The translations under genes were made by a program, and so were the position numbers. The notes below the pieces were generated by a model. That model searched no databases. It was not told the origin of the DNA and saw nothing but the letters and a program-made list of their open reading frames with translations. Positions 27,960 through 43,722 of a DNA stretch of 64,000 nt are shown piece after piece. The DNA is taken from the IMG/VR virus record IMGVR_UViG_2974592485_000001, positions 1 to 64,000 of that record; one strand, written 5' to 3'. Source of the DNA: a virus (taxonomy: Duplodnaviria > Caudoviricetes). The number at the start of each line of letters is the position of its first letter. Positions within the stretch are counted from its first letter, which is position 1.

Positions 27960-28045
27960 TGGTAGCGAACGTTGGAATCGAACCAACCTAGGCTAGAGCG
28001 CCGAGGGTTATGAGCCCCCTGAGTTCACCAGAACTCTAGTTCGCG
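27960..28045 (-). tRNA. tRNA-Met(CAT), initiator-like, long variable arm
   Basis: C1xU72 mismatch, GGG/CCC anticodon stem, CTCATAA loop, CCA encoded. Confidence 0.85.
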
Positions 28046-28046
28046 A

Positions 28047-28310: not shown

Positions 28311-28329
28311 TTTACCTCCGTAATAAATT

Positions 28330-28407
28330 TGGGGTGGTCGACGGGAGTTGAACCCGCATCTTCTTGAATCACAGTCAAGATCATTAGTCCAATTATGATA
28401 CGACCAC
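28330..28407 (-). tRNA. tRNA-His(GTG)
   Basis: cloverleaf, C73, CCA. Confidence 0.93.
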
Positions 28408-28529
28408 AAGTGAATACTATCAACGGTTGATCAGACCTTCTCTGCCAGCTATCGAACTGTTCTATTCTGACAGTTATCCCGTATTGTCCTAGATTACCTA
28501 GTCGTGGGGCTTTTAATAGTACTCACTTG

Positions 28530-28630
28530 TGGCGAGCCTAGGAAACTCTTCTCACTAACAACTAGTTGATTACTCTTAGATTGTTGCCCAAGAAATTCTC
28601 TAGAAAGGAGCACCGTTACACCATCGGCCC
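28530..28630 (-). ncRNA. tRNA-like RNA (acceptor stem + GCCA, divergent body)
   Basis: GGGCCGA...TAGGCTC-G-CCA. Confidence 0.45.
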
Positions 28631-28643
28631 ATTGTTTGTTATC

Positions 28644-28774
28644 AAGGAGTAGAAGGATTCGAACCTCCAAGAGCTAGACCATTTAGCTCAACCGGCCGTC
28701 GAGTAGTTTCATAGGAGTGGATGTTCCTAATAAACTCGTTAGCTAGTCCCGTCTACCAATTCCGGCATACTCCA
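28644..28774 (-). ncRNA. Leu-like tRNA body with a long hairpin in place of the anticodon loop
   Basis: acceptor, D (GAATTGGTAGAC), long V and T (GGTTCGAATCC) arms intact. Confidence 0.7.
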
Positions 28775-28781
28775 AGATTCT

Positions 28782-29090
28782 TTAATCGTAAACCCATTGC
28801 AGCATATAAAGGTACTTAGTATTATCAGAGAACACATCGTCCTCTTCATACTTTCTATATCGTTGTAGCTCTCTTGCTGCAAAGCGTCTACTTAATACTT
28901 TGGACTCTTCTTTTAGTCCCCTACAGTGCCTAAACATACCCCAGTCTCTAGACCATAGAGTATTCATAGACTGAACCTCTTTGTCAATTTCCTGTACAGT
29001 CTTAGGGGTTAAAGAGTTATCCTTCCAGTTTAAAGGAAGGATATTAGATCTTCTAAAGGCAAATCTTTTCCTACGAATTGTTCTAGACAT
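28782..29090 (-). CDS. basic hypothetical protein
   Basis: MSRTIRRK, AGGAGG RBS. Confidence 0.75.
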   Translation of the reverse strand: MSRTIRRKRFAFRRSNILPLNWKDNSLTPKTVQEIDKEVQSMNTLWSRDWGMFRHCRGLKEESKVLSRRFAARELQRYRKYEEDDVFSDNTKYLYMLQWVYD

Positions 29091-29155
29091 ATTTTCCTCC
29101 TAATTAATTCAGAGGAAAAGAAGTCTCCTAAAGATAATGTAAATCATGTTGCTCC

Positions 29156-29359
29156 TTAAAACTTATAGCTTTCAGGAACAGTATCAGCTTCACCTTCATA
29201 CTCCGCAAAGTAGTAGTAATCTGGCACATGATCTGTAGGTAAGTCTTTATTCTGCTCAGATACTACAGCTTTTGCTTCCTCTTCTGTATCGTAACCAATA
29301 AAAAATACTTCTCCACCCCACCCACGTTCGCTTTCTGTAAACTTAACGATATGTTTCAT
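29156..29359 (-). CDS. hypothetical protein
   Basis: start MKHIVK; ESERGWG...PDYY pattern. Confidence 0.75.
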   Translation of the reverse strand: MKHIVKFTESERGWGGEVFFIGYDTEEEAKAVVSEQNKDLPTDHVPDYYYFAEYEGEADTVPESYKF

Positions 29360-29634
29360 CGTACTACACCCCATTCATCTTGTATTGGATATGGTTGACC
29401 TGTGCAATACCAAGGGTCTTTACCATAGTCGTATGGCTTCTTTTTTGGCACCCTGTCTTCTTTAGGTACTTCAGAAAACTTCTCATTAAAGAGACAATGC
29501 CTTGATGTAGGATCTTTTATCAGCCAAATATGGGTTTCTTTCTTGTCTTTATCATATGCTGCCCCTAGAAATACATGTCCTTGCTTACTGTATTTCTCAT
29601 CTTCCCCTACTGAATAAGACATTAATAGATTCAT
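29356..29634 (-). CDS. hypothetical protein
   Basis: start MNLLMS, coupled. Confidence 0.7.
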   Translation of the reverse strand: MNLLMSYSVGEDEKYSKQGHVFLGAAYDKDKKETHIWLIKDPTSRHCLFNEKFSEVPKEDRVPKKKPYDYGKDPWYCTGQPYPIQDEWGVVR

Positions 29635-29635
29635 A

Positions 29636-29893
29636 TTAAACTCCATAAAAAGATGAAACTACAACATCTCCTGCCTGTAGATCAGAACTTGCTGGAACAT
29701 CTGCTAAATACTCTACATGTACAGACTCAGGTTTGATGCACCATGTACCCCAATTATATCCTTTCCAGTCTTCTTGATTACCGCTAGGATGTACCTTTTG
29801 TGCAGCTTCCATACTTTCTGCAACCACTACAGCCTCATCGTAGGTGTCTACATGGTTGTTTTCAGTTTGAAAAATTCTATATAGCTTAAGCAT
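29636..29893 (-). CDS. hypothetical protein
   Basis: YD.AVVVA...AQ..HP pattern, AGGAG RBS. Confidence 0.75.
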   Translation of the reverse strand: MLKLYRIFQTENNHVDTYDEAVVVAESMEAAQKVHPSGNQEDWKGYNWGTWCIKPESVHVEYLADVPASSDLQAGDVVVSSFYGV

Positions 29894-29911
29894 TATAGCT
29901 CCTATTAAATT

Positions 29912-30006
29912 TGGCGGAAGCCTAGGGGATCGAACCCTAACACCGTGTCACCACGATCAACCGATTTCAAGTCGGAGTCCGTCGCCAGCCGTCGGATGGG
30001 ACTTCC
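29912..30006 (-). tRNA. tRNA-Ser(TGA)
   Basis: long V arm, G73, CCA. Confidence 0.9.
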
Positions 30007-30016
30007 AGTAGTTTTT

Positions 30017-30343
30017 TTAATGGCTTACTTCAAACTCTCTAGTATGTATATACCCACACTTTTTACAGATTTTACTTTCAGTCTCTGTAATAGTAACTCT
30101 AGAGTACCCGTCCCAACCATCAGAATACCGTGACTCCCCGAAAGAGTGTTGACAGATACTCTGGTATTCTTTGCGTATCTCAGTTGCACGTAGCTCTAGG
30201 TTAGCAATCTTAATATTAATCTCCTTCTCTTCTTCTCTTAAGAGATTAAACTGGGCAGAGCTAGGGTCACTTTCAACTACAAAACCACGTTGGTTTAGTT
30301 CAAAGATCAAATCGTCTGTAGATGCATTAATATAAGTAGTCAT
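30017..30343 (-). CDS. hypothetical protein
   Basis: 108 aa, C.H...CKKCG. Confidence 0.7.
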   Translation of the reverse strand: MTTYINASTDDLIFELNQRGFVVESDPSSAQFNLLREEEKEINIKIANLELRATEIRKEYQSICQHSFGESRYSDGWDGYSRVTITETESKICKKCGYIHTREFEVSH

Positions 30344-30362
30344 AGTATTTCCTAGTTAAATT

Positions 30363-30454
30363 TGGCGGAAGAAGAGAGAATTGAACTCTCAAGCCTGTTT
30401 TCACAAGTCAGCCACTTTCCAAGCGGTTTTCGTCACCTATCGATTTGCTCTTCC
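30363..30454 (-). tRNA. tRNA-Ser(GGA)
   Basis: cloverleaf, long V arm, CCA. Confidence 0.9.
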
Positions 30455-30618
30455 ATTAATCTTATATTACATAAAACCAAGTTTTTCCATATTCAGAGTA
30501 TTTAGTAACATGGCATAACCATAGCCATTTAATCTCTGTAGGAATACACTCACATTCTTCAGTTATAACTCGTCTAGGGAACCATAAAAATGTTTTCATA
30601 TTACCCCTTGTTGATTAA

Positions 30619-30712
30619 GATGACGCCTCTACTACACCAGGCTGTTATGCCTCGCCGGGATTCGAACCCGTTAAAACAGTGTTTCCAACAGCAGTAGGTT
30701 TCACTGACCATC
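30619..30712 (-). ncRNA. structured small RNA with internal T-arm
   Basis: CGGG-TTCGAAT-CCCG within an end-paired hairpin. Confidence 0.55.
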
Positions 30713-30717
30713 AAATT

Positions 30718-30794
30718 TGGTACACCATCTCAGATTCGAACTGAGAACCCCTAGAACCTAAATCTAGTGCCTCTGCCAATTGGGCTAATGGTGC
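30718..30794 (-). tRNA. tRNA-Leu(TAG), short V arm
   Basis: cloverleaf, CCA. Confidence 0.9.
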
Positions 30795-30802
30795 ATTAAT
30801 AA

Positions 30803-30993
30803 TTTATTAAGGCTATAACCTAGGGTTAATACGCGGGCCTCCATTTGTTTAGAGTGCTCCGTACTAATTCAAACAGCGTCTTTACACTTAGGGTTACCAG
30901 CCCTTTCCGTGAACCACTTCGGAATCTGTCCTCACGATCTGGAGGCCGTGCTTTTTGGTAGCCGGTTCTCTGCCTAGGTTATACCTTAATAAA
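30803..30993 (-). ncRNA. ~190-nt RNA closed by a 21-bp stem
   Basis: IR 30803-30824/30973-30993; inner GGCCTCCA/TGGAGGCC. Confidence 0.6.
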
Positions 30994-31019
30994 CTGGGGA
31001 GGTTTACTCCCCAAATTAG

Positions 31020-31292
31020 CTACTTCAGATTATGGGTCTTTAAGTCAGCTATAGTTACAAAACCGTCGCCTACTAAAGAACCTGTCAAAACTACTTGCTG
31101 AACTACTAAGACCTGATTAGTAAGGGCATTGATACTATTAACTATATCTGCGCGTTTACTTTTTGTAACCTCCAGCCCTTCCTTCATCCTGACTAAATTA
31201 GCTTCTGTATCTTTAATACTAGCGGAAGTACAATTAATATCTGCGTCTAGTCTTACCAATGTTCTTTCTAGAACTTTTAGAGCTTCTGACAT
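31020..31292 (-). CDS. coiled-coil hypothetical protein
   Basis: 90 aa, AGGAG RBS. Confidence 0.75.
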   Translation of the reverse strand: MSEALKVLERTLVRLDADINCTSASIKDTEANLVRMKEGLEVTKSKRADIVNSINALTNQVLVVQQVVLTGSLVGDGFVTIADLKTHNLK

Positions 31293-31306
31293 ACTTTCTC
31301 CTAAAG

Positions 31307-31380
31307 TGGTACTCGATGATAGAATCGAACTATCGTAACTGCCGTGTAAAGACAGGGTTCTCCCATTGAACTAATCGAGT
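31307..31380 (-). tRNA. tRNA-Val(TAC)
   Basis: cloverleaf, CCA. Confidence 0.93.
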
Positions 31381-31508
31381 TTTAATCTACACCTGCAACT
31401 TCTTTAGCGGAAATTACTCACTGACCTAAAGACGCAGGCTGTTTTGTAAGAAGGCTGGTGTGATACGCACACCACTTAAGAAGTTTCTCTCACATACTTC
31501 ACCTTGTT

Positions 31509-31582
31509 TGGTACCAAGTGAGGGTAACGATCCCCCGTTTGTAGGTTATCAGCCCACTGTTCTACCTTTGAACTAACTTGGC
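31509..31582 (-). tRNA. tRNA-Ile(GAT)
   Basis: cloverleaf, atypical T-loop ATCGTTA, CCA. Confidence 0.88.
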
Positions 31583-31589
31583 TTTAATT

Positions 31590-31664
31590 TGGTGCGGACA
31601 CTCGAACTCGAATCGAGACCCCTAGTTTGGAAGACTAGAATGCTACCACTAACACTATGCCCGC
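31590..31664 (-). tRNA. tRNA-Gly(TCC)
   Basis: cloverleaf, A73, CCA. Confidence 0.9.
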
Positions 31665-31670
31665 GTAATT

Positions 31671-32015
31671 CTACATATTTTCAACAAAATCTTTAACCAT
31701 TTCAACTGTAAAGTAATCACTAGACCCTGAATGCATTGAAACAATAACAGACTGGTGCGATTCTTGATCTTTAACTAAGTCGTAAACTCCTGTTACGAAC
31801 GCTTTAAAGGTTTCTCCAGTCATATTACCTTGGGCTACTTCAATCAAGTCTGCGTAGGTTACTGTAACACCAGAGCCTTTCAAAGTAAAGGCCACTTCAT
31901 CCTTAATACTTTCTAGGGATGGAAACATGTCACTTTCCATGTCCCAACCAAGACGAATAGCATCTTCACTCAGATAGTGCCAAAAGAAAGCAGGGATAGA
32001 GTCACGAGTTTTCAT
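31671..32015 (-). CDS. hypothetical protein
   Basis: 114 aa. Confidence 0.75.
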   Translation of the reverse strand: MKTRDSIPAFFWHYLSEDAIRLGWDMESDMFPSLESIKDEVAFTLKGSGVTVTYADLIEVAQGNMTGETFKAFVTGVYDLVKDQESHQSVIVSMHSGSSDYFTVEMVKDFVENM

Positions 32016-32212
32016 TACAGTGTTTCCTGAATTTCAGTAGCAAATACACCTAAAGCTAATGCGAACGCTGCCTTGGTCTCATCCGTAACTGCCAGTTCAC
32101 TTTTTAAAGCTTCCATAGTGGCATACGTTTTCTGGTACACTTCTTTAGCAGAATCAGGCAACTCGGATAACAGCCCTTTCATCATTAGGGCTACACAAGT
32201 ATTTTCGTTCAT
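32015..32212 (-). CDS. hypothetical protein
   Basis: 65 aa after promoter. Confidence 0.7.
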   Translation of the reverse strand: MNENTCVALMMKGLLSELPDSAKEVYQKTYATMEALKSELAVTDETKAAFALALGVFATEIQETL

Positions 32213-32294
32213 TCGGATTTCCTTTGTTAGTTGACTTTATAATAAACATTATATCAAATATAGAGTATAAAAGCAACTGAATTTTTAGTAAATT

Positions 32295-32369
32295 TGGTGT
32301 TCTCCCAGGGAATTGAACCCCGACCCTGTCGTTCGTAGCGACATATTCTCTCCATTAAACTAGGAGAAC
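32295..32369 (-). tRNA. tRNA-Arg(ACG)
   Basis: cloverleaf, CCA. Confidence 0.92.
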
Positions 32370-32376
32370 ACAAATT

Positions 32377-32452
32377 TGGAAGCGAGTGATAGAATCGAAC
32401 TATCCTGTATAGGGATATGAGCCCTAGCAGTTCTCCAGAACTGTAACTCGCA
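32377..32452 (-). tRNA. tRNA-fMet-like (CAT)
   Basis: U1xU72 mismatch, 3 G-C pairs in anticodon stem. Confidence 0.88.
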
Positions 32453-32458
32453 ATTGTA

Positions 32459-32533
32459 TGGTAGTTAGTAGTGGAATTGAACCACTGTCTTCTGCTGTAT
32501 GAAAGCAGTGCATAACCATTCTGCCAACTAACT
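32459..32533 (-). tRNA. tRNA-Met(CAT)
   Basis: cloverleaf, CCA. Confidence 0.88.
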
Positions 32534-32538
32534 ATAAT

Positions 32539-32616
32539 TGGTGGCTCCCCGAGGATTCGAACCTACGTACCTTTCGATTATGAGTCGAGTGCTCATACCA
32601 TATGAGCTTGAGAACC
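32539..32616 (-). tRNA. tRNA(CAT), Ile2-like or Met
   Basis: CGA-CTCATAA-TCG arm resembling bacterial tRNA-Ile2. Confidence 0.85.
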
Positions 32617-32620
32617 AATT

Positions 32621-32697
32621 TGGTACACCACCCCAGATTCGAACTGGGAACTCTGAAGTCTTAAGCCTCATGCCTCTGCCAATTGGGCCAGTGGTGC
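32621..32697 (-). tRNA. tRNA-Leu(TAA), short V arm
   Basis: cloverleaf; paralog of Leu(TAG). Confidence 0.9.
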
Positions 32698-32863
32698 GTT
32701 AAATTATTTCTGTTCTACTTTTAGAACATCTAAATGCTTTTGATTATTAAAGAAGTCCGTCCTAAGTCTAAATTCTGACTTAGCATATACACAGAAAGGT
32801 GGCTGAGGCTTCCCTCTCTTACTACCTTTATTATAGCATGTGGTAACTAGGAACTTAATCATA

Positions 32864-33202
32864 TTATCGAATCTCGTAACCTTGATGATACCGTGGGAAA
32901 GGGGAGCCTACTTCAAAACAAATAGCCCACTCAATCTCGATTAGCTCTACTTTACTGTAGCTTTGCCCACGATCAGTAAATACGTACTGCATAAACGAAG
33001 GTGCAATAATCTGCGCATCGTCTTCAGACAAGTACACTAAATCTTCCGTGCGAAGACCCTCGTATTCTTCGAAAAATCGTTCAACAAAAAACTCTGGAAC
33101 AATAATAGTATCTTGCTCAACTGTATCATCAGTACGGTATACTTTGATACTGAAGAGAGACACACCGAGTAAGTTAATAGCAGGAGTTGTAAAAAGTTCC
33201 AT
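32864..33202 (-). CDS. T5-like hypothetical protein
   Basis: 112 aa. Confidence 0.75.
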   Translation of the reverse strand: MELFTTPAINLLGVSLFSIKVYRTDDTVEQDTIIVPEFFVERFFEEYEGLRTEDLVYLSEDDAQIIAPSFMQYVFTDRGQSYSKVELIEIEWAICFEVGSPFPRYHQGYEIR

Positions 33203-33387
33203 TACGCACCTTCAATATCTAGAGAAATTTTAAAAACAGGATTAATACCTGTTCCCTTGCATGTGGGACATTCCCATACAATATAGCCTATGTCCCCTGG
33301 TTCTGCGTCATCTTGTGTACCTGTACCCCAACAATCAGTACACATACACTCTTCAAGTTCTTGCTGTAGCTCTTGAAACCTAGACAT
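33202..33387 (-). CDS. small protein with DnaJ-type CxxCxGxG repeats
   Basis: CTDCWGTG, CPTCKGTG. Confidence 0.75.
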   Translation of the reverse strand: MSRFQELQQELEECMCTDCWGTGTQDDAEPGDIGYIVWECPTCKGTGINPVFKISLDIEGA

Positions 33388-33406
33388 GCTATCTCCTAGT
33401 TAAAAT

Positions 33407-33485
33407 TGGTAGACCGCCTGGGACTTGAACCCAGAACCTTCCGATTAAAAGTCGGGTGCTACTAAACCTATTGAGCTAGCGATCT
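33407..33485 (-). tRNA. tRNA-Lys(TTT)
   Basis: cloverleaf, CCA. Confidence 0.93.
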
Positions 33486-33490
33486 ATATC

Positions 33491-33583
33491 TGGTAAAGGG
33501 TGTAGGAGTCGAACCTACATACTAGAAGCTCGAAAGTCTAGTGCATTAGTCCTTGCATTCACGCGTTACTATGCTAACCCTTT
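33491..33583 (-). ncRNA. non-canonical tRNA (10-nt anticodon loop, 24-nt D loop)
   Basis: perfect acceptor AAAGGGT/ACCCTTT-A-CCA and T arm. Confidence 0.75.
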
Positions 33584-33589
33584 AGAATT

Positions 33590-33668
33590 TGGTGGAGAAT
33601 AACGGATTCGAACCGTTCTGGTATCCTCGGTGCAAGCGAGGCGTCCACTCCAAGCAGACCCATTCCCC
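33590..33668 (-). tRNA. tRNA-Ala(TGC)
   Basis: G3.U70, CCA. Confidence 0.93.
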
Positions 33669-33857
33669 TGAATTTTGTTATATAGTACGACCGTTTGACC
33701 AACAAGACAACCACTGTTTAACCATACTAATATTTTCGTCAGAGTGGCCTTCCTTTCGCATGATCGCCTCTAGCTGAATGTAAGAGTACTTCTTTCGGAA
33801 CACACGTTTAGCGTATAAGTAAGCGTCATTTTTAGTCATATCGTACCCTTAATAAAT

Positions 33858-33935
33858 TGGTCTCCCCGACAGGATTCGAACCTGTGACCCGATGCATCCA
33901 AGGCACCTACGCTGACCAGACTGCGCTACGGAGAG
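33858..33935 (-). tRNA. tRNA-Pro(TGG)
   Basis: cloverleaf, CCA. Confidence 0.93.
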
Positions 33936-34188
33936 TTATTATTCATACATTTTAAGAATATATTCTTTTGTTTCTTCAACACTAGAAAGACTTATACTCT
34001 CAAAAGAATTAAAGATGGTAGTTTTAACATTGCCATTTACAGGCAAATTGATTTTCATTATCTTAATTTCATTATGAAAAACAGATATTGGTACCATCTT
34101 TTTCTTCAACAAAATCTATCATTTGATTTCCTCCCTAACTTTCAATACAAATATTATATCAAACTTTAAGGAAGAAAGCAAATAAATT

Positions 34189-34536
34189 TTAAAACTTTTT
34201 AGTAAACCAGTTAATAGTCTCACCAGTATCCTGCTCATACCAGTTAACAAGCTCAGCTAGATTTCTAGGAGCATCCGTAGTTTTAAGATTTGCTAAATAA
34301 TGGCCAAGTCTATTCCAACTTTGCATATCCATTAAAGGCACACCTAATTCGCTACCAAAAGGTGAGGCGTCATGGATATCTACACGTCCTGCCCCATATT
34401 TGGTTTCATAAGTTCGAATCTTAACTACTTCACCTAAAATAGAGTTGAACTTCTCTTCCTCGGTATATGGGATATTATTCTCCTCATACCACCTATTGCT
34501 AACTGGCCCCATCCAATTTAGGAAATAAGTAACCAT
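34189..34536 (-). CDS. hypothetical protein
   Basis: 115 aa. Confidence 0.75.
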   Translation of the reverse strand: MVTYFLNWMGPVSNRWYEENNIPYTEEEKFNSILGEVVKIRTYETKYGAGRVDIHDASPFGSELGVPLMDMQSWNRLGHYLANLKTTDAPRNLAELVNWYEQDTGETINWFTKKF

Positions 34537-34537
34537 T

Positions 34538-34882
34538 TTATGCCCTTACTTTTGTTAAAGTAATCCCTAGACTTTCTAAGAATCCTTTAGCTCCATACAT
34601 ACTATCTACAGCCGCAGGGTTGTGGGAATGGATATTGATTTTTTGTATAGAAGAAAGTTGCCCATTGAAAATTGCTTCTTCAATAAAACTTAGTACATCT
34701 TTACCTTCTTTTTCAGTTCCTAGATCATTATCCAAAGAAACATAAGTTATATAGGGTCTTTCTTGCAAAAGACGTATAGCATCCACATAGTTATCAACCC
34801 ATATAACATGATTGATTCCCTTAGTAAAGATAGGGTAATCTTTAGGATCACGTAAATCATCAACCCAAAGTAATGTTTCCAT
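34538..34882 (-). CDS. stand-alone receiver-like protein (cyclic-phosphate-processing receiver type)
   Basis: LWVDDLRDP, SLDNDLG, G.DVL, IHS.NP. Confidence 0.7.
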   Translation of the reverse strand: METLLWVDDLRDPKDYPIFTKGINHVIWVDNYVDAIRLLQERPYITYVSLDNDLGTEKEGKDVLSFIEEAIFNGQLSSIQKINIHSHNPAAVDSMYGAKGFLESLGITLTKVRA

Positions 34883-34985
34883 TTGTATTTCCTCTCACTA
34901 ATTTATGAACATATTATACCCTAAATTAAGAAGAAATGCAAATGAATTTTTAGAAAAATAAAGCCACCGAAGTGGCTGTAAAATC

Positions 34986-35255
34986 TTAAACTCGATGAAT
35001 AATCTTTACTGTCTGGCCTTGGTCATTCATGAGGTATGAAGACTCGTTCTTATGAACGAAGATGGTCTTATCCTCAGAAACAACAGACGCAACTACGGAA
35101 TCAGAGTCTGGGCTACTGTAGCCTTCAAAGTGAAACTGAACTCTTACATCTACACTTAACTCAATAAAGTGCTCTTCTTCATCTACCTCAAAGGGTACTG
35201 AATCGAAAATTCTTGTCCCCGCAGGGAGTTTGCGAATAATTTTTAAAGTATACAT
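34986..35255 (-). CDS. hypothetical protein
   Basis: MYTLKI...YLMND.GQTV, AAGGAG RBS. Confidence 0.75.
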   Translation of the reverse strand: MYTLKIIRKLPAGTRIFDSVPFEVDEEEHFIELSVDVRVQFHFEGYSSPDSDSVVASVVSEDKTIFVHKNESSYLMNDQGQTVKIIHRV

Positions 35256-35286
35256 AGTGCTCCTTAGTAGTATTTAGTAGTACTAT

Positions 35287-35784
35287 TGACACGGGTATTG
35301 CCCTTCCGAAGAAGGGCTAACCCAGGCTTGTAACTTGTCATTTCTGTTTTAAGTTGGATAAGTAGTCACATAAGGGGATCTTTGTAGTTAGCCGATAGAG
35401 TACCTTATATGCTAAACCATTGACTGAAAGTTGATAGCTTCCCATACTTTGACAAGGGGATCTCTTTTGTTTTTAACGTGGATTCGTTGATCAGTTGAAC
35501 CACTACGTCTGGTCTCCCAAACGCTAGGGCAATGGCTATCTAAAGCCCTAGCTTCTACAACTCAGTGGATAGCATGAGTTAGTTATGCTGTCTCGTATCG
35601 ATTTACAGGCTTGTGGGACAGTATCCGCTGATTATTCATAACTATAGTGTAGGTTACGTGTCAGTCCAACAAAGTGAGACTATCATCCTACGTACTGGCA
35701 AGGACGGTGAACCAGTACCGTTTACACATTTTAAAGTCAACCGTCATCCTTGCTAGAAGACAAGCCCCTAGACTTACCGTGTCA
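35287..35784 (-). ncRNA. ~500-nt structured RNA, tmRNA-like topology
   Basis: end-pairing stems, H-type pseudoknot, no minus-strand ORF >=60 aa. Confidence 0.6.
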
Positions 35785-35991
35785 CCGTTGTTTCAGGATC
35801 GTACTTGCCCATCAGTGATCATTCTTTTAACTTTGCTATTGCGTCAAATAGTGCTGATAATTCAGCCTCGGCATTAACAATGCTTGTATCTAGCTCGGTC
35901 TTTTCCTTGTTGAGGTTCCTTAATCTTTGCTCAACAATGCTAGCTCGATTCTCTAGAAGTGATAGAGGTGAATTCATATTTGTTCCTTAAT

Positions 35992-36066
35992 TGGTGCTCC
36001 CACTAGGATTCGAACCTAGTTCTGATGCTTACAAGGCAACTGCATCGCCATCAATGCTTTGGAAGC
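35992..36066 (-). tRNA. tRNA-Thr(TGT)
   Basis: cloverleaf, CCA. Confidence 0.92.
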
Positions 36067-36075
36067 TAAGTTATA

Positions 36076-36279
36076 TTAATCTTTCAGAGGTTTGGATGTA
36101 CGAGTACCTTTATACTTATACATTTTACGACGCTGCTTTTCTCGCTTATAAAGTTCACGTCCACAACCAGCAGCTAAAACTCGTGGGTATCGACCTGCCT
36201 CATATGTAGTTTCCTGTGCAGGTACACCATACCCTTCTTTCACAATACGACGACATAATTTTGCTTGCTTACCATTCAT
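36076..36279 (-). CDS. basic hypothetical protein
   Basis: start MNGKQAK (AAGGA RBS). Confidence 0.7.
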   Translation of the reverse strand: MNGKQAKLCRRIVKEGYGVPAQETTYEAGRYPRVLAAGCGRELYKREKQRRKMYKYKGTRTSKPLKD

Positions 36280-36723
36280 ACTTAGGTTTCCTTTTGTTAA
36301 GTTTGGGAGATATCTATTGATATCACACACTGTACCCCTGCCACGAATTTGTGGTTCCTGTGTGATCCTACCTGAGCACTCCTCGTGGAAACTGCTCTAG
36401 TAGTTCATAAAAGATATCACCTAAACTCAACTCACTTATTAAGACGCTCTTCTCGTATTATGAGTACACTGAGGAATAGAGGTGCGAGTTCTATTATTAT
36501 CCTAACCTTACCGCCGTAAAGTTTCAGAGTCGTCTTAATAAGTAAACTTTCGTTTACTTATACTCCTGTCGGCGGTAGGTTCTAGTGCGGCCTAGAATGT
36601 CTACCCTACAATACAGAAGATTTTAGCAAGCAGAACGGCCGGAACTAACTTGCCTTGTTTACTACTAGCCTAGTAGACACACAAGCTGTTACACGAATAT
36701 GCAAGCTCAGCCTTAGTAGATTT

Positions 36724-36868
36724 TGGTGCGGTCAGAGAGGTCATTCTAGACAGGTATCGAACCTGCTATCACCACTGCGGAATTACGAGCTTGCCCTTTG
36801 ACTTCTACGGAATTGAACCGTACCTCAACCCTCGAATGGCTGGTTTCCCCATCAACCACGCTAGAATG
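36724..36868 (-). ncRNA. tRNA-like RNA with two T-arms
   Basis: CATTCTAG/CTAGAATG stem; TACGG-TTCAATT-CCGTA and GCAGG-TTCGATA-CCTGT. Confidence 0.65.
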
Positions 36869-36939
36869 TTTATTAATGAGCAGAGTCCGGTGTAGCAGTC
36901 CGTAAGGGTGCACCTACTGTAGCCTTTACTCTGTTTGTT

Positions 36940-37016
36940 TGGTACTCCCAGAAGGACTTGAACCTTCAACCCTCCGCTTAAGAGGCGGTAGCTCTAACCA
37001 GTTGAGCTATGGAAGT
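36940..37016 (-). tRNA. tRNA-Lys(CTT)
   Basis: cloverleaf, CCA. Confidence 0.92.
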
Positions 37017-37127
37017 GTTTAATGAATAGCCATAAAAATGACTATTGGTTAAACACATCTTTGTGTTCGTCGGCTTGCATCTTTCAGCGTCGCAGGGAGA
37101 GTACCGTCTCTTTACCCCTACCCAATT

Positions 37128-37202
37128 TGGCGCTACCGATGGGATTCGAACTCACATATTCCCCGTGAGAGAAGAGTATCATATCCACTAGACTATAGTA
37201 GC
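37128..37202 (-). tRNA. tRNA-Glu(CTC)
   Basis: cloverleaf with some mismatches, G73, CCA. Confidence 0.8.
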
Positions 37203-37208
37203 TTTAAT

Positions 37209-37285
37209 TGGCGGGCAGTGCTGGGTTCGAACCAGCTATCCTTCGCTTAACAGGCGAGCGCATGTACCATATATGCTCACTACCC
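37209..37285 (-). tRNA. tRNA-Asn(GTT)
   Basis: cloverleaf, G73, CCA. Confidence 0.92.
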
Positions 37286-37587
37286 AAATTTGTTGCTAGG
37301 AAGAAACCTGATTCGGAAAAACAATCCCAGCGATTTTTAGCAGACTTTTAGTTATTGGTTTAGATTAAGCGGAGTTTCCTCGGCAAATCCCTGATCAAGC
37401 TGGCTTTTGCACAGCCACCCACTTGAAACTGCTTACCTCACGCCACAAGTTAATGTCAGTATGGCGATTGACTTAGTGCAAATTCTTTATACTGCTTTGG
37501 GTGTTTCGGGGTTACTCAATACTGGTTCTACTATTAACCCTTATTCGAACTGCTAACCAGTTTAAGAGCGTACTCACAGTATAAATT

Positions 37588-37661
37588 TGGACGACGATAC
37601 TGGATTTTAACCAGTCTAAAGAAGTTTGCAATTTCTCACCTAGTCACTCGGACAATCGTCG
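37588..37661 (-). tRNA. tRNA-Cys(GCA)
   Basis: cloverleaf, U73, CCA. Confidence 0.88.
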
Positions 37662-37724
37662 GTTCTTTACTAACTTTCAATATAAATATTATATCAAATA
37701 ATATAGCTGAAAGCAAATGAATTT

Positions 37725-38201
37725 TTAATCAACAAGCTTCAGAGTAGGGCAATATTTTTCTTTTTTAGCCTTCAGGAACTCAACCGTAATGTTAGTTGCG
37801 GATACTAACTTTTTGTTAGATACTGCCGCCAGTTTTCCTACTGAAGACTCTTTAAGGTTTCTTTTACGTGCAAACTCTGTAACCCTGCCCCAGTTTTTTC
37901 TGATCAAGAATCCTAGACCAAAAATTCCGGAGGCTACTGCTGCACCTACTAAGGGTAGCACGTACAGAGTTGCTAGCGTACCTTTAAGCCCTACTAGGAA
38001 ACCTGTTGCCATTCCCACTAATCCACCAATGATTAGTAATACTGCCCAAATAAACACTAAAAGTGCAGCAGTTTTGGCTACGTTGCCAAACGTATACCAA
38101 AAGTATTCACAACCGTTTTCTAACTCATCTGCTGTGAATCTACTACCCATAGCTCGGTTAAATCGATGTAACTTAGAAGACTTACTAATAGTCCAAGACA
38201 T
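37725..38201 (-). CDS. membrane protein
   Basis: 2 TM, C.YFW and K.KYCP motifs. Confidence 0.8.
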   Translation of the reverse strand: MSWTISKSSKLHRFNRAMGSRFTADELENGCEYFWYTFGNVAKTAALLVFIWAVLLIIGGLVGMATGFLVGLKGTLATLYVLPLVGAAVASGIFGLGFLIRKNWGRVTEFARKRNLKESSVGKLAAVSNKKLVSATNITVEFLKAKKEKYCPTLKLVD

Positions 38202-38202
38202 A

Positions 38203-38397
38203 CTATTTCCTTATCACAATAAAATGTTTTCTTAAGCAAGAAGACGAAACCCACACTTCTTTACCTAGGTCATCAATTATTAGTAAACCTGCTCTTCTAG
38301 CACTTCTTGCTATTACAGGGTATTCTACCCCCATAGAAGTATGCTCTAATAAATGACCCCCTATGAAAGTTTCGTTATACTTTCTAGTAAGTTTCAT
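38203..38397 (-). CDS. hypothetical protein
   Basis: 64 aa. Confidence 0.65.
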   Translation of the reverse strand: MKLTRKYNETFIGGHLLEHTSMGVEYPVIARSARRAGLLIIDDLGKEVWVSSSCLRKHFIVIRK

Positions 38398-38411
38398 ACT
38401 ACTTTCCTATT

Positions 38412-38486
38412 TGGCAAACCCGCTAGGATTCGAACCTAGACCAGCAGTTTTGGAGACTGTTATGCTACCATTAACACCACGGGAAT
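38412..38486 (-). tRNA. tRNA-Trp(CCA)
   Basis: cloverleaf; U.U mismatches in acceptor stem. Confidence 0.88.
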
Positions 38487-38492
38487 ATTGTT

Positions 38493-38598
38493 TGGAGCCT
38501 AGCCTAGGATTCGAACCTAGATGTATTTAACTCTACTGTTAGTTCGAGTACGTTTGACCAGCCTGGATGGGCTGCGCCAGTCCAACTGGCCACTAGAC
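38493..38598 (-). ncRNA. non-canonical tRNA (6-nt anticodon loop, ~38-nt variable region)
   Basis: acceptor + U73 + CCA, perfect T arm, 6-bp D stem. Confidence 0.7.
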
Positions 38599-38605
38599 TA
38601 TAATT

Positions 38606-38680
38606 TGGTGCCCCCTGTTCGTAACGATCGAACCTCTCAAGCTCTTCAGGCAAGCGCTAATCCGTCTCAGCTAAAAGGGC
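38606..38680 (-). tRNA. tRNA-Phe(GAA)
   Basis: cloverleaf, T-loop ATCGTTA, CCA. Confidence 0.85.
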
Positions 38681-38688
38681 ATAATTTG

Positions 38689-38994
38689 TTATTCTTCAGG
38701 ATTCATTGCTTCGTCAATGAGGTCACTTAAATCAATCATACCAATTGACAGGTTACGAAGTTTAAAGACCCGTAAAACCGCTTGGTAGTCTTCTTCCTGA
38801 ATAGAATCTAGCTCTACGGCTAATTCGTTAACTTGAACGGCTTCATTTGTGCCAAAGTAAATCTCCTCAGTAGAAGAGAAGCACGCTCCTTGGGTAAGTA
38901 CCAGAAAGGCTGCCTGCTCGGCAGAGATCTCGTGCAAACCAGAAACATCAAATTCATCTGCATAATTACCTGAAATCCTAAGAATGTGTCGCAT
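38689..38994 (-). CDS. hypothetical protein
   Basis: start MRHILR (AGGAG RBS); NYADEFD and YFGTNE motifs. Confidence 0.75.
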   Translation of the reverse strand: MRHILRISGNYADEFDVSGLHEISAEQAAFLVLTQGACFSSTEEIYFGTNEAVQVNELAVELDSIQEEDYQAVLRVFKLRNLSIGMIDLSDLIDEAMNPEE

Positions 38995-39076
38995 TGTGTA
39001 TCTCCTAAGTAATATTAATGAATAGCTATTATGCTGGAACAAAATAACTATTGGTTAATACCTCTTTGACGATATT

Positions 39077-39153
39077 TGGCAGGGAATGCAGGACTTGAAC
39101 CTGGCTCTATGGGAGTCAAAGGCCCATGTGCTAACCTGTTACACCAATTCCCA
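39077..39153 (-). tRNA. tRNA-Gln(TTG)
   Basis: cloverleaf, CCA. Confidence 0.9.
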
Positions 39154-39159
39154 ATTGTT

Positions 39160-39235
39160 TGGTACACCCAACGGAACTCGAATCCGTATTCTTACCTTGA
39201 AAGGATAATGTCCTAACCTATTAGACGATGGGTGC
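39160..39235 (-). tRNA. tRNA-Glu(TTC)
   Basis: cloverleaf, CCA. Confidence 0.92.
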
Positions 39236-39242
39236 ATTTGTT

Positions 39243-39324
39243 TGGTGGGGCGTCTTGGATTCGAACCAAGGTGTGGTATGCCGGATTTACAGTCCGGTGC
39301 CTTCAACCGCTCAGCCAACTCCCC
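39243..39324 (-). tRNA. tRNA-Tyr(GTA)
   Basis: cloverleaf, CCA. Confidence 0.92.
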
Positions 39325-39333
39325 CAAAATTCT

Positions 39334-39636
39334 TTATGTATTTGACACATCTGGCATCCCAACATACTTAGGGACTACCTGTAGTTGAAACACCCAAGAA
39401 GTTACGTCTTCAAAGGTATCATCATTGTACTGACTAATAGTAGCAACCATATTAGTTAGGTTAATCTCTAAGTCTAGCCGTTTACTATTATCCACAGGTA
39501 CTTCTGCATCTTGCAGCTCTGTTAGAACTTCTGGAGTTAACACTACACTGTAGAATACCATCCATTCGTTATCCCCGTCCCAACCATCCCATGAAGTTAC
39601 TAAGCAACTCTCAATACCGCTAGCAATTAATCTCAT
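39334..39636 (-). CDS. hypothetical protein
   Basis: 100-aa acidic ORF. Confidence 0.7.
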   Translation of the reverse strand: MRLIASGIESCLVTSWDGWDGDNEWMVFYSVVLTPEVLTELQDAEVPVDNSKRLDLEINLTNMVATISQYNDDTFEDVTSWVFQLQVVPKYVGMPDVSNT

Positions 39637-39683
39637 ATCAGTATACCTTTAGTAGATGAAATTTTCAAGATAATAATTTAATT

Positions 39684-39773
39684 TGGCGGAAGGAGAGGGA
39701 CTTGAACCCACAAGGCTGTTTTGCAACCCACTGATTAGCAGTCAGCTCACTTACCAAATTAGTGTATCCTTCC
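39684..39773 (-). tRNA. tRNA-Ser(GCT)
   Basis: long V arm, G73, CCA. Confidence 0.92.
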
Positions 39774-39871
39774 AAATTTATAAATATATTATATAATAAA
39801 ACAAAGCGTTTAGCAAATGCATTTTTATATAATCTATCTATTGCCCCACCGAAGTGGGGCATACTAACAGC

Positions 39872-40459
39872 TTACTGTGCTCTTAGAGAGATTGGAGACT
39901 GAACTCCACTATTAAAAATCTCTTGAGTACGTGAATCAGAAATTACCTGACAGAGTGTGTCCAAGTTCTTCTTAGGGAACCCAGCAAACTTCAGCCAATA
40001 ACCTTTCCAGAAATAATCCAGATTGGTACGGTAATTACGACACTCTTGTAGTTTAAGGGTCTGAGCAATACGGAACTCATCTCGACCTGCCTCAATAACA
40101 GTCTGTAGATTTACAAACAGTTTTGAATCGAACTGTAAGTTATTTTCCTGAATCCACTGCATTACTGCTTTAGAACCACCAGAGCCGTAACGGCCTTCAA
40201 ACGTTGCCTTGATGACCTCTTTCAAGTCATTTTGGTACATCTCAGGAACTTGAATCATCTCCTGAATCTTAACTGTGTATGTAGACAGCTTATTTTCAGA
40301 ATCCTGATTTAGTAACACGATCTGGTTTTCAAACCGTGCACCCTCATTAGTAGCACTAACATAGCTAGCAAATAAAGTACCTCCAATTACCAAAGCAAGT
40401 GCAAAAAGACCTGCCAATACAATCCCAACTTTAGCTCCAACGGTAAGTTCTTTGCTCAT
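39872..40459 (-). CDS. membrane-anchored helical protein (LemA-like)
   Basis: start MSKELT; one N-terminal TM then helical domain. Confidence 0.75.
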   Translation of the reverse strand: MSKELTVGAKVGIVLAGLFALALVIGGTLFASYVSATNEGARFENQIVLLNQDSENKLSTYTVKIQEMIQVPEMYQNDLKEVIKATFEGRYGSGGSKAVMQWIQENNLQFDSKLFVNLQTVIEAGRDEFRIAQTLKLQECRNYRTNLDYFWKGYWLKFAGFPKKNLDTLCQVISDSRTQEIFNSGVQSPISLRAQ

Positions 40460-41522
40460 TAAACAAATCCTCTTTGTGTACATAGTATGCTGCGCCAATA
40501 GATGCTAGCAAGTTAACAATCATTAGGGTGATTAACACTGACATAGGTATTTCAATACTTTCCACCATGTACTTAAATGTTTCGTTAGGTAGACGATGAA
40601 ATTCCTTTGCTATCAGATCAGTCTGACGTTGCACTAACTCTAGTGAGAGAGCACTATCAATAGTCTCAATCCTCAGTCTAGCAAGTAATTCTCTGTTATC
40701 TTGACCATCAGCAAATGAGGTAGCTTTAAACCACTTAACTTTGCTAGAGTCTTTTTCTAGACCATAAACTAGAACCACATCATTTTTCTTACCACCTTCC
40801 CAAGCATGATAAAGAGCTTGGTAGAAGTCTTCTTCAAACTCAGTAACTACAACAGTTATGTTAACCTGCTTATCGGCTCCCAAAGTTTTAAGACGTTCGT
40901 TCAAATAGTGGTTAATGTAGTCATAGTTCTTACCATTAGTAGTTACCACTCGGTTAATCTTGTAGTAATCGTAAATACGAGGATATTTAGGAACTCTACC
41001 CTTGTACTTTTCTACTATAGTTTCATCAGTATGAAAACGAGATTCATCAATTAGCAGGAAGTTTCTAGTAAACTTTTCATCTGCTGCAAAGTCTCCAATA
41101 CTTACTTGAGTAAAACGAGGAGGTTCTTTAAGACCCCTACGGTCTACACGGTCTATGTCAAAGTAGCCTACGGTAGTTTTAACTGTCCAGTCTATATCGT
41201 AAGAATGCTCATCACAGTATATTGGAACACAGGTCTGGTTACCTTTAGAGTCCGTACTACAAGTTTGCCCACACTGGTACTGATGCTCGCATGAGACTTT
41301 CTCACTGTACTTATCTAATACATACCCATTCCAAATTTCTGTATCGCCTGTTTTGGCGTGCATAGCTAACGCTAGAAACCCACAGAGGAGTGCGGTAACT
41401 CCTAAATTAGCTAGAAACTGAACACCCCATTCTTTCAATGTAATTGTGTGGTGAAATACCCACTTAGCTAAAACTGTTACACACAGTGCAGGCAACATAA
41501 GTAGTAAAAGATAATACCCCAT
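40431..41522 (-). CDS. membrane protein with periplasmic (TPM-like) domain
   Basis: 2 N-terminal TM, Cys-rich segment, WEGGKKNDVVLV, C-terminal TM. Confidence 0.8.
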   Translation of the reverse strand: MGYYLLLLMLPALCVTVLAKWVFHHTITLKEWGVQFLANLGVTALLCGFLALAMHAKTGDTEIWNGYVLDKYSEKVSCEHQYQCGQTCSTDSKGNQTCVPIYCDEHSYDIDWTVKTTVGYFDIDRVDRRGLKEPPRFTQVSIGDFAADEKFTRNFLLIDESRFHTDETIVEKYKGRVPKYPRIYDYYKINRVVTTNGKNYDYINHYLNERLKTLGADKQVNITVVVTEFEEDFYQALYHAWEGGKKNDVVLVYGLEKDSSKVKWFKATSFADGQDNRELLARLRIETIDSALSLELVQRQTDLIAKEFHRLPNETFKYMVESIEIPMSVLITLMIVNLLASIGAAYYVHKEDLFNEQRTYRWS

Positions 41523-41875
41523 TAGTCCTCCACAAGTATGTCAGAGGATTTGTGAATTAACTCTGCTTTTGTAGACTCAAATGCTGCTGCTAGTAGCAAG
41601 TATTGAGTTGATAACTGACTTCGTACCTCAGATATATCAACTTGCAACCCTTCTGTAAAACCTTCTCTGACTTTATCGTAAGCAGCCCTCATTACATTAA
41701 GATAATTTCTATCTGTTTCAGGGATATCTGTAGAGTACTGTATTCCGTTTACTTCAACATATACCTTAAAAGGTATTTGAGTACACCCTGAAATGGCTGC
41801 TCTAACTCTCTTTAAATTCCCTAGCCTAGACTGTAGTCTAGAGATTTCACGTTGTAATTCTTCTACAGTAGCCAT
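41522..41875 (-). CDS. hypothetical protein
   Basis: 117 aa, AGGAG RBS. Confidence 0.75.
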   Translation of the reverse strand: MATVEELQREISRLQSRLGNLKRVRAAISGCTQIPFKVYVEVNGIQYSTDIPETDRNYLNVMRAAYDKVREGFTEGLQVDISEVRSQLSTQYLLLAAAFESTKAELIHKSSDILVED

Positions 41876-41897
41876 AGTAGCTCCTAGTTAGTAAAAT

Positions 41898-41972
41898 TGG
41901 TACGCCCTATAGGAATCGAACCTATATCTACGGCTTAGAAGGCCGCTGCTCTATCCATTGAGCTAAGGGCGC
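41898..41972 (-). tRNA. tRNA-Arg(TCT)
   Basis: cloverleaf, CCA. Confidence 0.94.
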
Positions 41973-42011
41973 GTTGTATTTTTAAGAACTCTCGTAAAAG
42001 CTCTTAAAGAT

Positions 42012-42890
42012 ACTGACTAGAAATAGTATCCTGACGATACAGGTTTACTCCTAGTCAATAGTCTCAGTTTTTAAAGTCATGCGTAGACTTGTTCACGGTT
42101 AGTGGAGCTAATCTCCAACAGGTATTACATCCTAGACCTTATAGGGTCATGACTCCACATTTTCGTCTAGGCACCATCGCAACATATTTTGCGTGCACCA
42201 TCGTATGTTTATTGATGTCCTTTACCCATCTTCTCAATGAGTTATCCCGTGCGTTTGGTTGAGGGCTGAGAGGCCACCTCAGATTCACTCAACTATCCAA
42301 GCTCTGTACTAAACGTTACAAACTCGAACCAGAGCGTAGAGTTTATGAGCAGTTTTACAGTCTGACAACTGTACGGTTTAGCTATTTCGATCTAACCTTG
42401 ATAAGACACATCGTGGCCGATTTGCCCTCATAGTATGTACTCTAGCAGCGATCGCGTAGCTATACGCATCAAACACCTAACTCTTTCCCACTGTAGGACT
42501 CGAACCTACGCCTGTACCCCTAGGGTACTATCATTTCCAACTAGACCAAGAGGGCAGTGTTGTTACGTGATCAATTTCGACACCCCGTAATTTGTGGCTG
42601 GTACACCCCTAATAAGACATCCTATTGGCATCCTACTCCAGACATACACTTCCCACATTTAGTAAAGAAGAGTTTACGAGATTCTCAGTCAGCACTGAGG
42701 TTTTCTAGAGGAGAGCGAGCCACAATTCCGAACTTGTCATTCCTCAAACTCACAGATTCTCTCTAGGTATACTCACGATCCAGTTTCACCCGCTAAGACT
42801 ACTACATCCACGTGTACCTCAGCATAGTCTGCCTGCTGTTCTTTACTACATAAATTAAAGCATTTTAGGTGTGCGGTGTGGCACTTTAAC
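42012..42890 (-). ncRNA. large (~870-nt) structured RNA with embedded tRNA-like module
   Basis: downstream of strong promoter, no minus-strand ORF, many helices, D/T arms at 42485-42556. Confidence 0.6.
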
Positions 42891-43003
42891 CTCTTAAGAG
42901 TACCCGAAGTGAACTTTTAGGATCTGACTCCCTCTGTAAACCTTCTTTTCTTTAATTTATGAATCTATTATACAGATTATTTAGCTAAAAAGCAAATGAA
43001 TTT

Positions 43004-43276
43004 TTAATTAAATTCGTCCAACAACTTAACTATTATATCCCCATGACACAGGTTAGGCTTACAAAAACAACCTAAACGCTTCCCCTCTAAGGCTAGAAGT
43101 CTATCTTTAAACGTAGAATCTGTAGATAGCCTATTTCTTAAATGCATCTCATATAATTTAATGCATTTTATTAGGCCATAATCCCTAGCCTCAAAAGGGT
43201 TTCCAAACTCAGAAGGGCGACCTATGTACACATCATATTCTTCGCCCTTCTTTATATTTACTACTTTAGTAGTCAT
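43004..43276 (-). CDS. DUF4326-family protein
   Basis: YDVYIGRPS.FGNPF...LGCFCKP..CHGD. Confidence 0.85.
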   Translation of the reverse strand: MTTKVVNIKKGEEYDVYIGRPSEFGNPFEARDYGLIKCIKLYEMHLRNRLSTDSTFKDRLLALEGKRLGCFCKPNLCHGDIIVKLLDEFN

Positions 43277-43722
43277 TTTCCTGCTTCTTTCAAAACTCTG
43301 TCAGCAATCTGTGATGCCATCTTACCATCATACTGACCAGCAAACTCTGCCTTAAGTAGTCGCATTAAAATGGCTTTAGTAATCACAGTATCTGTGTTTA
43401 GGTCAATAACTTGATTGAAGTACTGGACTAATTGGGCTTCCGATAGCAGTACAGGTGCATAACGTTCCCATAGCTCATCTAGAAGCTCTACAAACAGCTG
43501 ATCAGGTTGATAATCAATCCCCAGCTCATTGGCTTTTGCTTCCGTAGTCTCAATAGCTTTATTTTGAGACTTGATATATTTTAAGAGTTCATCACGACTA
43601 ATGTAATCTTTGTTTATACGTTGTAAGTCCCCTAACACTGTAGATACCGCTACAGTTGGATAACCGTTTTTACGAAAGGTTTCTAGGATTTCTCGTAGAA
43701 CCGTAAGCATATTTTCGCCCAT
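43273..43722 (-). CDS. YqeY/GatB-like protein
   Basis: P.LLSEA.L...G.YDGKMAS pattern. Confidence 0.7.
   Translation of the reverse strand: MGENMLTVLREILETFRKNGYPTVAVSTVLGDLQRINKDYISRDELLKYIKSQNKAIETTEAKANELGIDYQPDQLFVELLDELWERYAPVLLSEAQLVQYFNQVIDLNTDTVITKAILMRLLKAEFAGQYDGKMASQIADRVLKEAGK

Follow-up and report, generated by a model that had tools for sequence, protein, structure and literature searches.

What occupies the stretch, devoid of long open reading frames (ORFs), that lies between an early promoter and the first gene of a tRNA cluster in a T5-like phage? We addressed this question in the 106-kb T5-like phage record IMGVR_UViG_2974592485_000001 of IMG/VR, using positions 1 to 64,000 of the record (64,000 nt, referred to as the window). 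The closest public relative is Pectobacterium phage My1, with 92% identity over the locus. An earlier sequence-only reading had marked out a structured non-coding RNA of about 870 nt at 42012-42890 with an embedded tRNA-like domain, and had proposed that it was either GOLLD-like or a new large RNA class. Our comparative analysis makes it very likely that the stretch encodes a member of the RNAX family of T5-like phages (Demerecviridae), a large, structured non-coding RNA of modular fold. The RNA is a divergent, My1-like member of a family that is annotated and uncharacterised, and the proposed new class falls away, since the stretch is a homologue of the annotated rnaX/RNAX of T5 and BF23. The RNA and all window features described below lie on the minus strand.

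RNAX has been present in T5 database records since about 2004. In T5 (AY734508; reference NC_005859, locus tag T5s08), a 719-nt misc_RNA named rnaX runs from promoter P16-17 to tRNA-Arg, and the record of phage BF23 (AJ604530) holds a 784-nt rnaX feature with the same borders. Both NC_005859 and AJ604530 describe it as a 'stable RNA with unknown functions'. The Salmonella phage 5 record (AJ604531) gives only the name rnaX, another T5 record labels the internal tRNA-like element a pseudo-tRNA, and the homologous stretch of My1 is annotated only as 'tRNA-Leu', with no RNA gene. The terminal 42 nt of the window stretch match several hundred T5-like genomes, and in three GenBank entries, all from one laboratory, this match falls inside the rnaX feature. 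There is no RNAX model in Rfam, and a literature search covering RNAX, the stable RNAs of T5 and its transcriptomes turned up no paper on the structure or function of the RNA.

The stretch occupies the position of rnaX: it follows a P16-17-type promoter, is ORF-free, leads into tRNA-Arg(UCU) and lies downstream of a phrog_1460 gene. An early sigma-70 promoter was found at 42967-42995, precisely where the sequence-only reading had placed a strong promoter, with the -35 hexamer TTGCTT (42995-42990), a 17-nt spacer and the -10 hexamer TATAAT (42972-42967). Hexamers and spacing are identical across all relatives compared, and the window promoter has almost the same sequence as promoter P16-17 of T5, a label given to the homologous site in both T5 and BF23. 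A generic sigma-70 scan misses this promoter, as its -35 hexamer agrees with TTGACA at 3/6 positions only. Presuming that it behaves as T5 early promoters do, we take +1 to lie at 42960. A putative RNAX-family RNA of about 988 nt, supported by synteny and covariation, would extend from there to 41973, the base preceding tRNA-Arg. The region of 42012-42890 marked out earlier is indeed non-coding, but the unit is longer than this and begins about 70 nt further upstream. Directly downstream, tRNA-Arg(UCU) (41898-41972; ARAGORN and Rfam, 74.2 bits) is probably co-transcribed with RNAX. The order promoter, RNAX, tRNA-Arg is the same in T5, BF23 and other relatives, and RNAX heads a cluster of 25 tRNA calls on its own strand (27960-42556; ARAGORN).

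To characterise the family, we gathered the RNAX locus from about 45 loci in Tequintavirus, Epseptimavirus, Sugarlandvirus, Myunavirus, Novosibvirus and Priunavirus; a pattern search on viral contigs gave 32 loci. A covariance model (R1) was built from a 153-position core of 28 relatives, with the window and My1 held out. R1 matched the window at 42592-42444 over its full length, with a score of 103 bits and an E-value of 3.5e-27, and all its other matches in the window, on or over tRNA genes, scored 39 bits or less. This conserved core (42444-42592) includes the block GGGGUGUCGAAAU..AACACUG, the clamp helix P4 around the tRNA-like arm (42575-42562 with 42481-42468) and the hairpin P5 (42467-42454). 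Pairing was counted in an alignment of 35 distinct sequences (A3) over 29 pairs of the clamp, acceptor stem, T stem and P5. Overall, 93.6% of the cells were paired and 18 pairs were doubly changed, compared with 9.3 ± 1.4 in shuffled alignments (0/500) and 0-6 with partners slid; the covariation score was 0.337 versus 0.146. In the 12-bp clamp P4, 99.5% of cells were paired and both sides had changed in 7/12 pairs (for example A-U/C-G, C-G/G-C and G-C/A-U), and the window itself makes 11 of the 12. G.U accounts for about 7% of the paired core cells; on the opposite strand these would be A.C, which agrees with an RNA of the same strand as the promoter.

The tRNA-like arm inside the clamp (42485-42555) scores 38.3 bits with the Rfam tRNA model, against a gathering score of 29, and is called by ARAGORN at 42556-42484. 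The main features noticed beforehand, namely a tRNA fold mid-way along the RNA with a T arm, a zipped anticodon arm and no CCA, were all recovered. The T arm (GUAGG-UUCGAGU-CCUAC) is intact and the D-loop GG that completes the elbow is present. The anticodon arm is closed into 6 bp and a 3-nt loop (GUACCC-UAG-GGGUAC), with no seven-base decoding loop. The acceptor stem has two mismatches, G1.A72 and U5.U68, the second of which is retained in 24/35 relatives (A3); there is no encoded CCA, the 3' side continuing into the clamp helix. The tRNAs scored by Rfam in the window span 33-74 bits, and the embedded arm is among the lowest. Across relatives the D-loop GG and T-arm bases are invariant (A4) and the T stem and acceptor stem covary (A3), while the length and sequence of the anticodon arm vary freely.

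The slot between AACACUG and AAGA that holds this arm is tRNA-like in most members. An unrelated hairpin fills it in Proteus phages Stubb and VTCCBPA139, Providencia phages PSTCR5 and PR1, and IMG/VR loci L077 and L078, and these members still score 61-97 bits with R1 (61-68 bits for the Proteus and Providencia versions). The arm is therefore a swappable peripheral module, whose conserved feature is the elbow and not decoding. T-arm-like hairpins are seen by eye in the 5' part instead in Stubb (CUGGGUUCAACUCCCAG) and PR1 (GAGGUUCGAUUCCUC). A tRNA-shaped domain that has lost its decoding features within a larger RNA is also found in the bacterial Y-RNA-like YrlA, in tmRNA and in the 3' elements of MALAT1 and NEAT1. 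The RNAX arm resembles these in keeping the acceptor, T arm and elbow without decoding features; unlike them, it is clamped in a 12-bp helix and is a plain hairpin in some relatives. ARAGORN made no tmRNA call, and Rfam gave no family other than tRNA.

Upstream of the core lies a second region with comparative support, a conserved pseudoknotted 5' domain (42660-42848) that was defined from an alignment of 28 sequences (A2) with 25 pairs tested. A closing helix, P0 (42848-42839 with 42669-42660), encloses the domain. Within it, hairpin P1 (42838-42834 with 42824-42820) presents a loop, CAGA (42831-42828), that pairs with UCUG (42756-42753) to form the pseudoknot PK1; P3, GAGUU (42751-42747) with AACUC (42674-42670), stacks on P0. 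A further hairpin, P2, pairs CUCAG (42699-42695) with CUGAG (42688-42684), and its covariation was judged by eye in A2. In this alignment 96.8% of the cells in the domain were paired, and 7 pairs were doubly changed, versus 2.4 ± 1.2 in shuffled alignments (0/500) and 1-5 with the partners slid. Three forms of PK1 were seen: CCGA/UCGG, the common form; CAGA/UCUG in the window, My1 and a Proteus phage; and CUGA/UCAG in a Pantoea phage. The window forms P0, P1, PK1 and P3, and its PK1 is compensatory to the common form. Comparison with syntenic regions of T5-like phages, a check that the sequence-only reading had itself put forward, has thus revealed covariation in both the 5' domain (A2) and the core (A3), and its picture of a large ornate structured RNA with a tRNA-like domain beside a tRNA cluster is borne out.

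The pseudoknotted 5' domain is common and not universal. It is kept in BF23 and most relatives; T5 lacks it, having 39 nt from +1 to the core and P0 shrunk to a small hairpin (L002:315-354). T5 may be a poor model for this domain. Alignment of the 5' parts further defines a 110-nt 5' extension domain in the window (42850-42960), which is shared in full with My1 only; short pieces of it, for example CUAAAAGU, recur in Proteus and Providencia phages. As read from this single sequence, the ends of the extension could pair with each other, AUAAAUUAAAG (42960-42950) with CUUUAAUUUAU (42860-42850). The linker that joins the 5' domain to the core (42587-42659) consists mostly of a 65-66-nt segment that is missing from My1 (window-My1 alignment and alignment A1).

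Support for the 3' domain comes from direct reading of the sequences, and competing stem registers of its palindrome hairpin stand in the way of an objective alignment. A hairpin at 42258-42293 pairs GUUGAG with CUCAAC around CUGAG/CUCAG; the outer helix had been listed beforehand (42293-42258) and is present. In a two-sequence comparison of the window and My1, the latter has a different inner hairpin, CGUAGUGG/CCACUACG, in place of CUGAG/CUCAG. The palindrome-loop hairpin follows (42131-42171; stem CCUAGAC at 42171-42165 with GUCUAGG at 42137-42131). Its loop bears the family-conserved GGAGUCAUGACC (42156-42145), single copy in the window, and inside this lies an 8-nt palindrome, GUCAUGAC (42153-42146), which is retained in 22/23 distinct versions, My1 being the exception with GUCAUGCC. 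The flanking stems vary between members (AGGCU/AGCCU, AGACU/AGUCU, GUGAC/GUCAC and UAGGCA/UGCCUA), with ambiguous register in some. A palindrome in a hairpin loop is a classic kissing-loop dimerisation site, and the conserved GUCAUGAC loop suggests that RNAX may self-associate. The centre of the P5 loop is also often self-complementary (A3 columns 147-163), with AGCU in the window, ACGU in T5, CCGG in Epseptimavirus, AACGUU in AAS21 and UAAUUA in PSTCR5, although this does not extend to all members; the P5 loop could be a second self-pairing site.

The 3' end (41976-42058) is formed by a sub-terminal stem and a terminal hairpin. In the sub-terminal stem, UUGACUAG (42058-42051) pairs with CUAGUCAG (42020-42013), which is the 3'-end helix TTGACTAG/CTAGTCAG of the earlier reading, found in its place; two compensatory changes distinguish it from that of My1, at 42042/42031 and 42049/42022. 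The terminal hairpin (42013-41976) is near-invariant and single copy in the window, matches more than 400 T5-like genomes and ends 4 nt before tRNA-Arg. It had been described as one of two similar hairpins bracketing the RNA. It stands as a family element, but its likeness to the 5' hairpin is weak and the latter is part of the 110-nt extension. Part of the window 3' domain follows the variant of Citrobacter phage CitS1 and not the T5 type, which points to modular exchange.

Taken as a whole, the window RNA shares with T5 RNAX the P16-17 promoter type, the position from the phrog_1460 gene to tRNA-Arg(UCU), the core blocks, the clamp, the arm, the GGAGUCAUGACC loop and the terminal hairpin, and these blocks are conserved even though overall identity is only about 56%. 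It differs from the T5 RNA in length (about 988 nt versus 719 nt), in having the full 5' domain and the 110-nt 5' extension, in the 6-bp stem and 3-nt loop of its anticodon arm, and in two flipped acceptor pairs (G4-C69 to C-G and C7-G66 to U-A). My1 (NC_018837, about 40.4-41.3 kb) is 92% identical where aligned, with the same architecture and an identical core; it differs in lacking 17-nt and 66-nt segments, in small insertions, in a 546-nt ORF before tRNA-Arg and in its broken palindrome.

The distance between promoter and terminal hairpin was 638-984 nt in the first set of T5-like loci measured and is more than 1200 nt in Klebsiella phages. When 185,579 bacterial and archaeal species genomes were searched with a strict 20-base core pattern, the single match was rejected by the covariance model. 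In Stubb (L082:4250-5011) and in the Providencia loci L084 and L085 the order of modules differs, with the GUCAUGAC block upstream of the core. Additional ORFs are found at the borders of the RNA in several relatives. An ORF of about 480 nt lies between promoter and core (L039 and L044: 1011-1493) in KFSSM, where it is annotated as a homing endonuclease, and in CitS1, where it is annotated as hypothetical. Between terminal hairpin and tRNA-Arg, ORFs annotated as hypothetical measure about 510 nt in beppo, HMD-P2 and CitS1 and 546 nt in My1 (L040:2151-2660, L043:2170-2679, L044:2110-2619 and L001:3978-4523). Both border ORFs are missing from the window, and the RNA modules are unbroken in the relatives that have them. 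The survey also brought up a stretch of about 40 nt conserved among about 20 metagenome contigs (including L049, L051, L054, L055 and L058); this element, GGGGAGUUGAAGCGUCCGGUAGUGGAAACACUGCCGGACG, has a GUCCGG/CCGGAC hairpin and is unrelated to RNAX.

Several observations weigh against RNAX being a functional, stably folded RNA. The experimental basis of the database label 'stable RNA' was not found in the literature, and both transcript ends (42960 and 41973) are inferred positions. The T5 segment of record AY734508, taken whole, is the st0 deletion of viable T5 mutants and includes RNAX; T5 RNAX is therefore dispensable in the laboratory, and any function must be conditional. Since the palindrome does not covary and is interrupted in My1, self-pairing is a reading of the sequence only. 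The folding energy was undistinctive, with the antisense strand scoring better (z = -1.66 sense, -3.25 antisense). When the minimum-energy fold of the window was compared with My1, 2 compensatory pairs were seen alongside 24 one-sided breaks, versus about 20 expected, which was not significant; only the named helices, and not a full-length fold, are therefore established. Energy z-scores are uninformative for a 1-kb RNA; the evidence for structure is the comparison with relatives.

Could the stretch act without ever becoming a free RNA? It might be mainly a cis-acting leader of the tRNA operon, a folded 5' region that would govern how far transcription reads through, in what order processing occurs or how stable tRNA-Arg and the tRNAs after it are. 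The location speaks for a leader: RNAX lies directly upstream of tRNA-Arg at the head of the cluster, and a terminator scan found no minus-strand terminator-like site between 42960 and tRNA-Arg. It is also general knowledge that tRNA-like elements can recruit RNase P. However, a pseudoknotted multi-domain RNA of 640-1300 nt is well above the known size of bacterial leaders, and the T5 and BF23 records speak of a stable RNA. Many relatives have an ORF (about 510-546 nt) that separates the RNA from tRNA-Arg, and their RNA is intact, so that adjacency is not required. The integrity of the modules despite border ORFs is therefore evidence against a purely cis-acting leader, and we consider this explanation improbable.

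The stretch could also be a decaying spacer, made up of the remains of dead tRNA genes and mobile endonuclease genes and transcribed incidentally. Such decay would account for the variation in length, for the missing 5' domain of T5, for the homing-endonuclease genes at the borders and for the fact that the region can be deleted in T5. It would not account for compensatory changes that maintain long-range helices and a pseudoknot across genera, nor for blocks that persist at about 55% identity, and it is very hard to reconcile with the data. A trail of dead tRNAs was likewise considered and rejected, as only one tRNA-like element is detectable inside RNAX.

Membership of GOLLD or ROOL, or a distant relationship to them, had been the other suggestion of the sequence-only reading. 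Rfam 15 was scanned at gathering thresholds over the 64-kb window, and with permissive filters at E ≤ 10 on both strands of 41700-43300. GOLLD and ROOL, which we take to be RF01998 and RF03087, were matched in neither scan; the permissive scan of 41700-43300 returned tRNA plus three chance-level matches only, and these results rule out any Rfam family other than tRNA. The resemblance that prompts the comparison is one of setting: like GOLLD and ROOL, RNAX is large, ornate, pseudoknotted, phage-borne and beside a tRNA island, and GOLLD linkers sometimes hold tRNAs (PMC12286853). GOLLD and ROOL also assemble through kissing loops (PMC12286853), whereas oligomerisation of RNAX is only suggested by its palindromic loop. 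The hosts differ as well, RNAX belonging to lytic T5-like phages of enterobacteria. The helices of RNAX were derived independently and are set apart from those of GOLLD and ROOL by the model scans, not helix by helix; kinship with either family is extremely doubtful.

Coding was examined in the same stretch. No conserved ORF was found in 42960-41973, where the sense ORFs measure 49, 32 and 31 aa, in agreement with the earlier statement that the minus strand holds no ORF of 60 aa or more. In My1 a 1-nt indel and stop codons interrupt the 49-aa frame, and the 65-66-nt deletion removes most of the 31-aa frame. The 32-aa frame has a GUG start inside a conserved RNA block, and T5-type relatives are without its start codon (reading of A1 and A3). 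Most of the indels between the window and My1 (17, 66, 1, 9, 1, 20, 7, 1 and 8 nt) would shift a reading frame, and substitutions relative to My1 do not favour third positions. That one or more small proteins are encoded is scarcely credible against these broken, deleted or startless frames and the missing codon-position pattern, even though three short sense ORFs exist and some relatives carry automatic 'hypothetical proteins' here, often on the opposite strand.

How might an RNAX of this kind work? It would be made early, as the first part of the tRNA-operon transcript. A cut by RNase P at the 5' end of tRNA-Arg would free it, and the terminal hairpin would then protect the new 3' end; a 3' end set and protected in this way would agree with the wording 'stable RNA' of the database records. 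The tRNA-like elbow would serve as a structural or docking module and not as a decoder, the palindromic loop could let RNAX copies pair, and the RNA would act in trans as a folded scaffold. We would guess that RNAX is an accessory scaffold or decoy RNA in a tRNA-related conflict between phage and host, dispensable in permissive laboratory hosts. A bolder proposal, which we regard as unlikely but worth stating, is that RNAX is a third giant phage RNA that forms an RNA-only assembly through the GUCAUGAC loop, perhaps with the P5 loop. Its outward-facing elbow might then dock or trap a host factor that handles tRNAs, for example a processing enzyme or a defence nuclease that cuts tRNAs, and thereby help the phage tRNA set to work.

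Two genes lie just upstream of RNAX, encoding a DUF4326 protein (43007-43276) and a phrog_1460 protein ('tRNA amidotransferase'; 43276-43722). A phrog_1460 homologue is upstream of RNAX, adjacent or one small gene off, in T5, Epseptimavirus, AAS21, Stubb, PSTCR5 and PR1, that is, wherever neighbours are annotated; none was seen upstream of RNAX in the Klebsiella phage loci. A YqeY domain was considered for the phrog_1460 gene and rejected (Pfam 16 bits against a cut-off of 27). YqeY-type domains bind tRNA elbows in GatB, and it is for this reason conceivable that the phrog_1460 protein is a partner of RNAX. Further into the cluster, three more tRNA-like elements (32542-32616, 37131-37202 and 38609-38680) scored 33-41 bits with Rfam and received no ARAGORN call; these could likewise be tRNA look-alikes that have been remodelled.

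Large non-coding RNAs with an intricate fold are a rarity, and GOLLD, ROOL, OLE and raiA have each been structurally surprising. RNAX is carried by T5, whose history as a model phage is among the longest, and by several hundred relatives with sequenced genomes, which are used in phage therapy and biocontrol. Most of their genome records leave RNAX blank, call part of it a tRNA or fill it with spurious small ORFs. The My1-like version in the window supplies several of the compensatory changes, and the named helices and loops are concrete targets for mutation in a genetically easy system.

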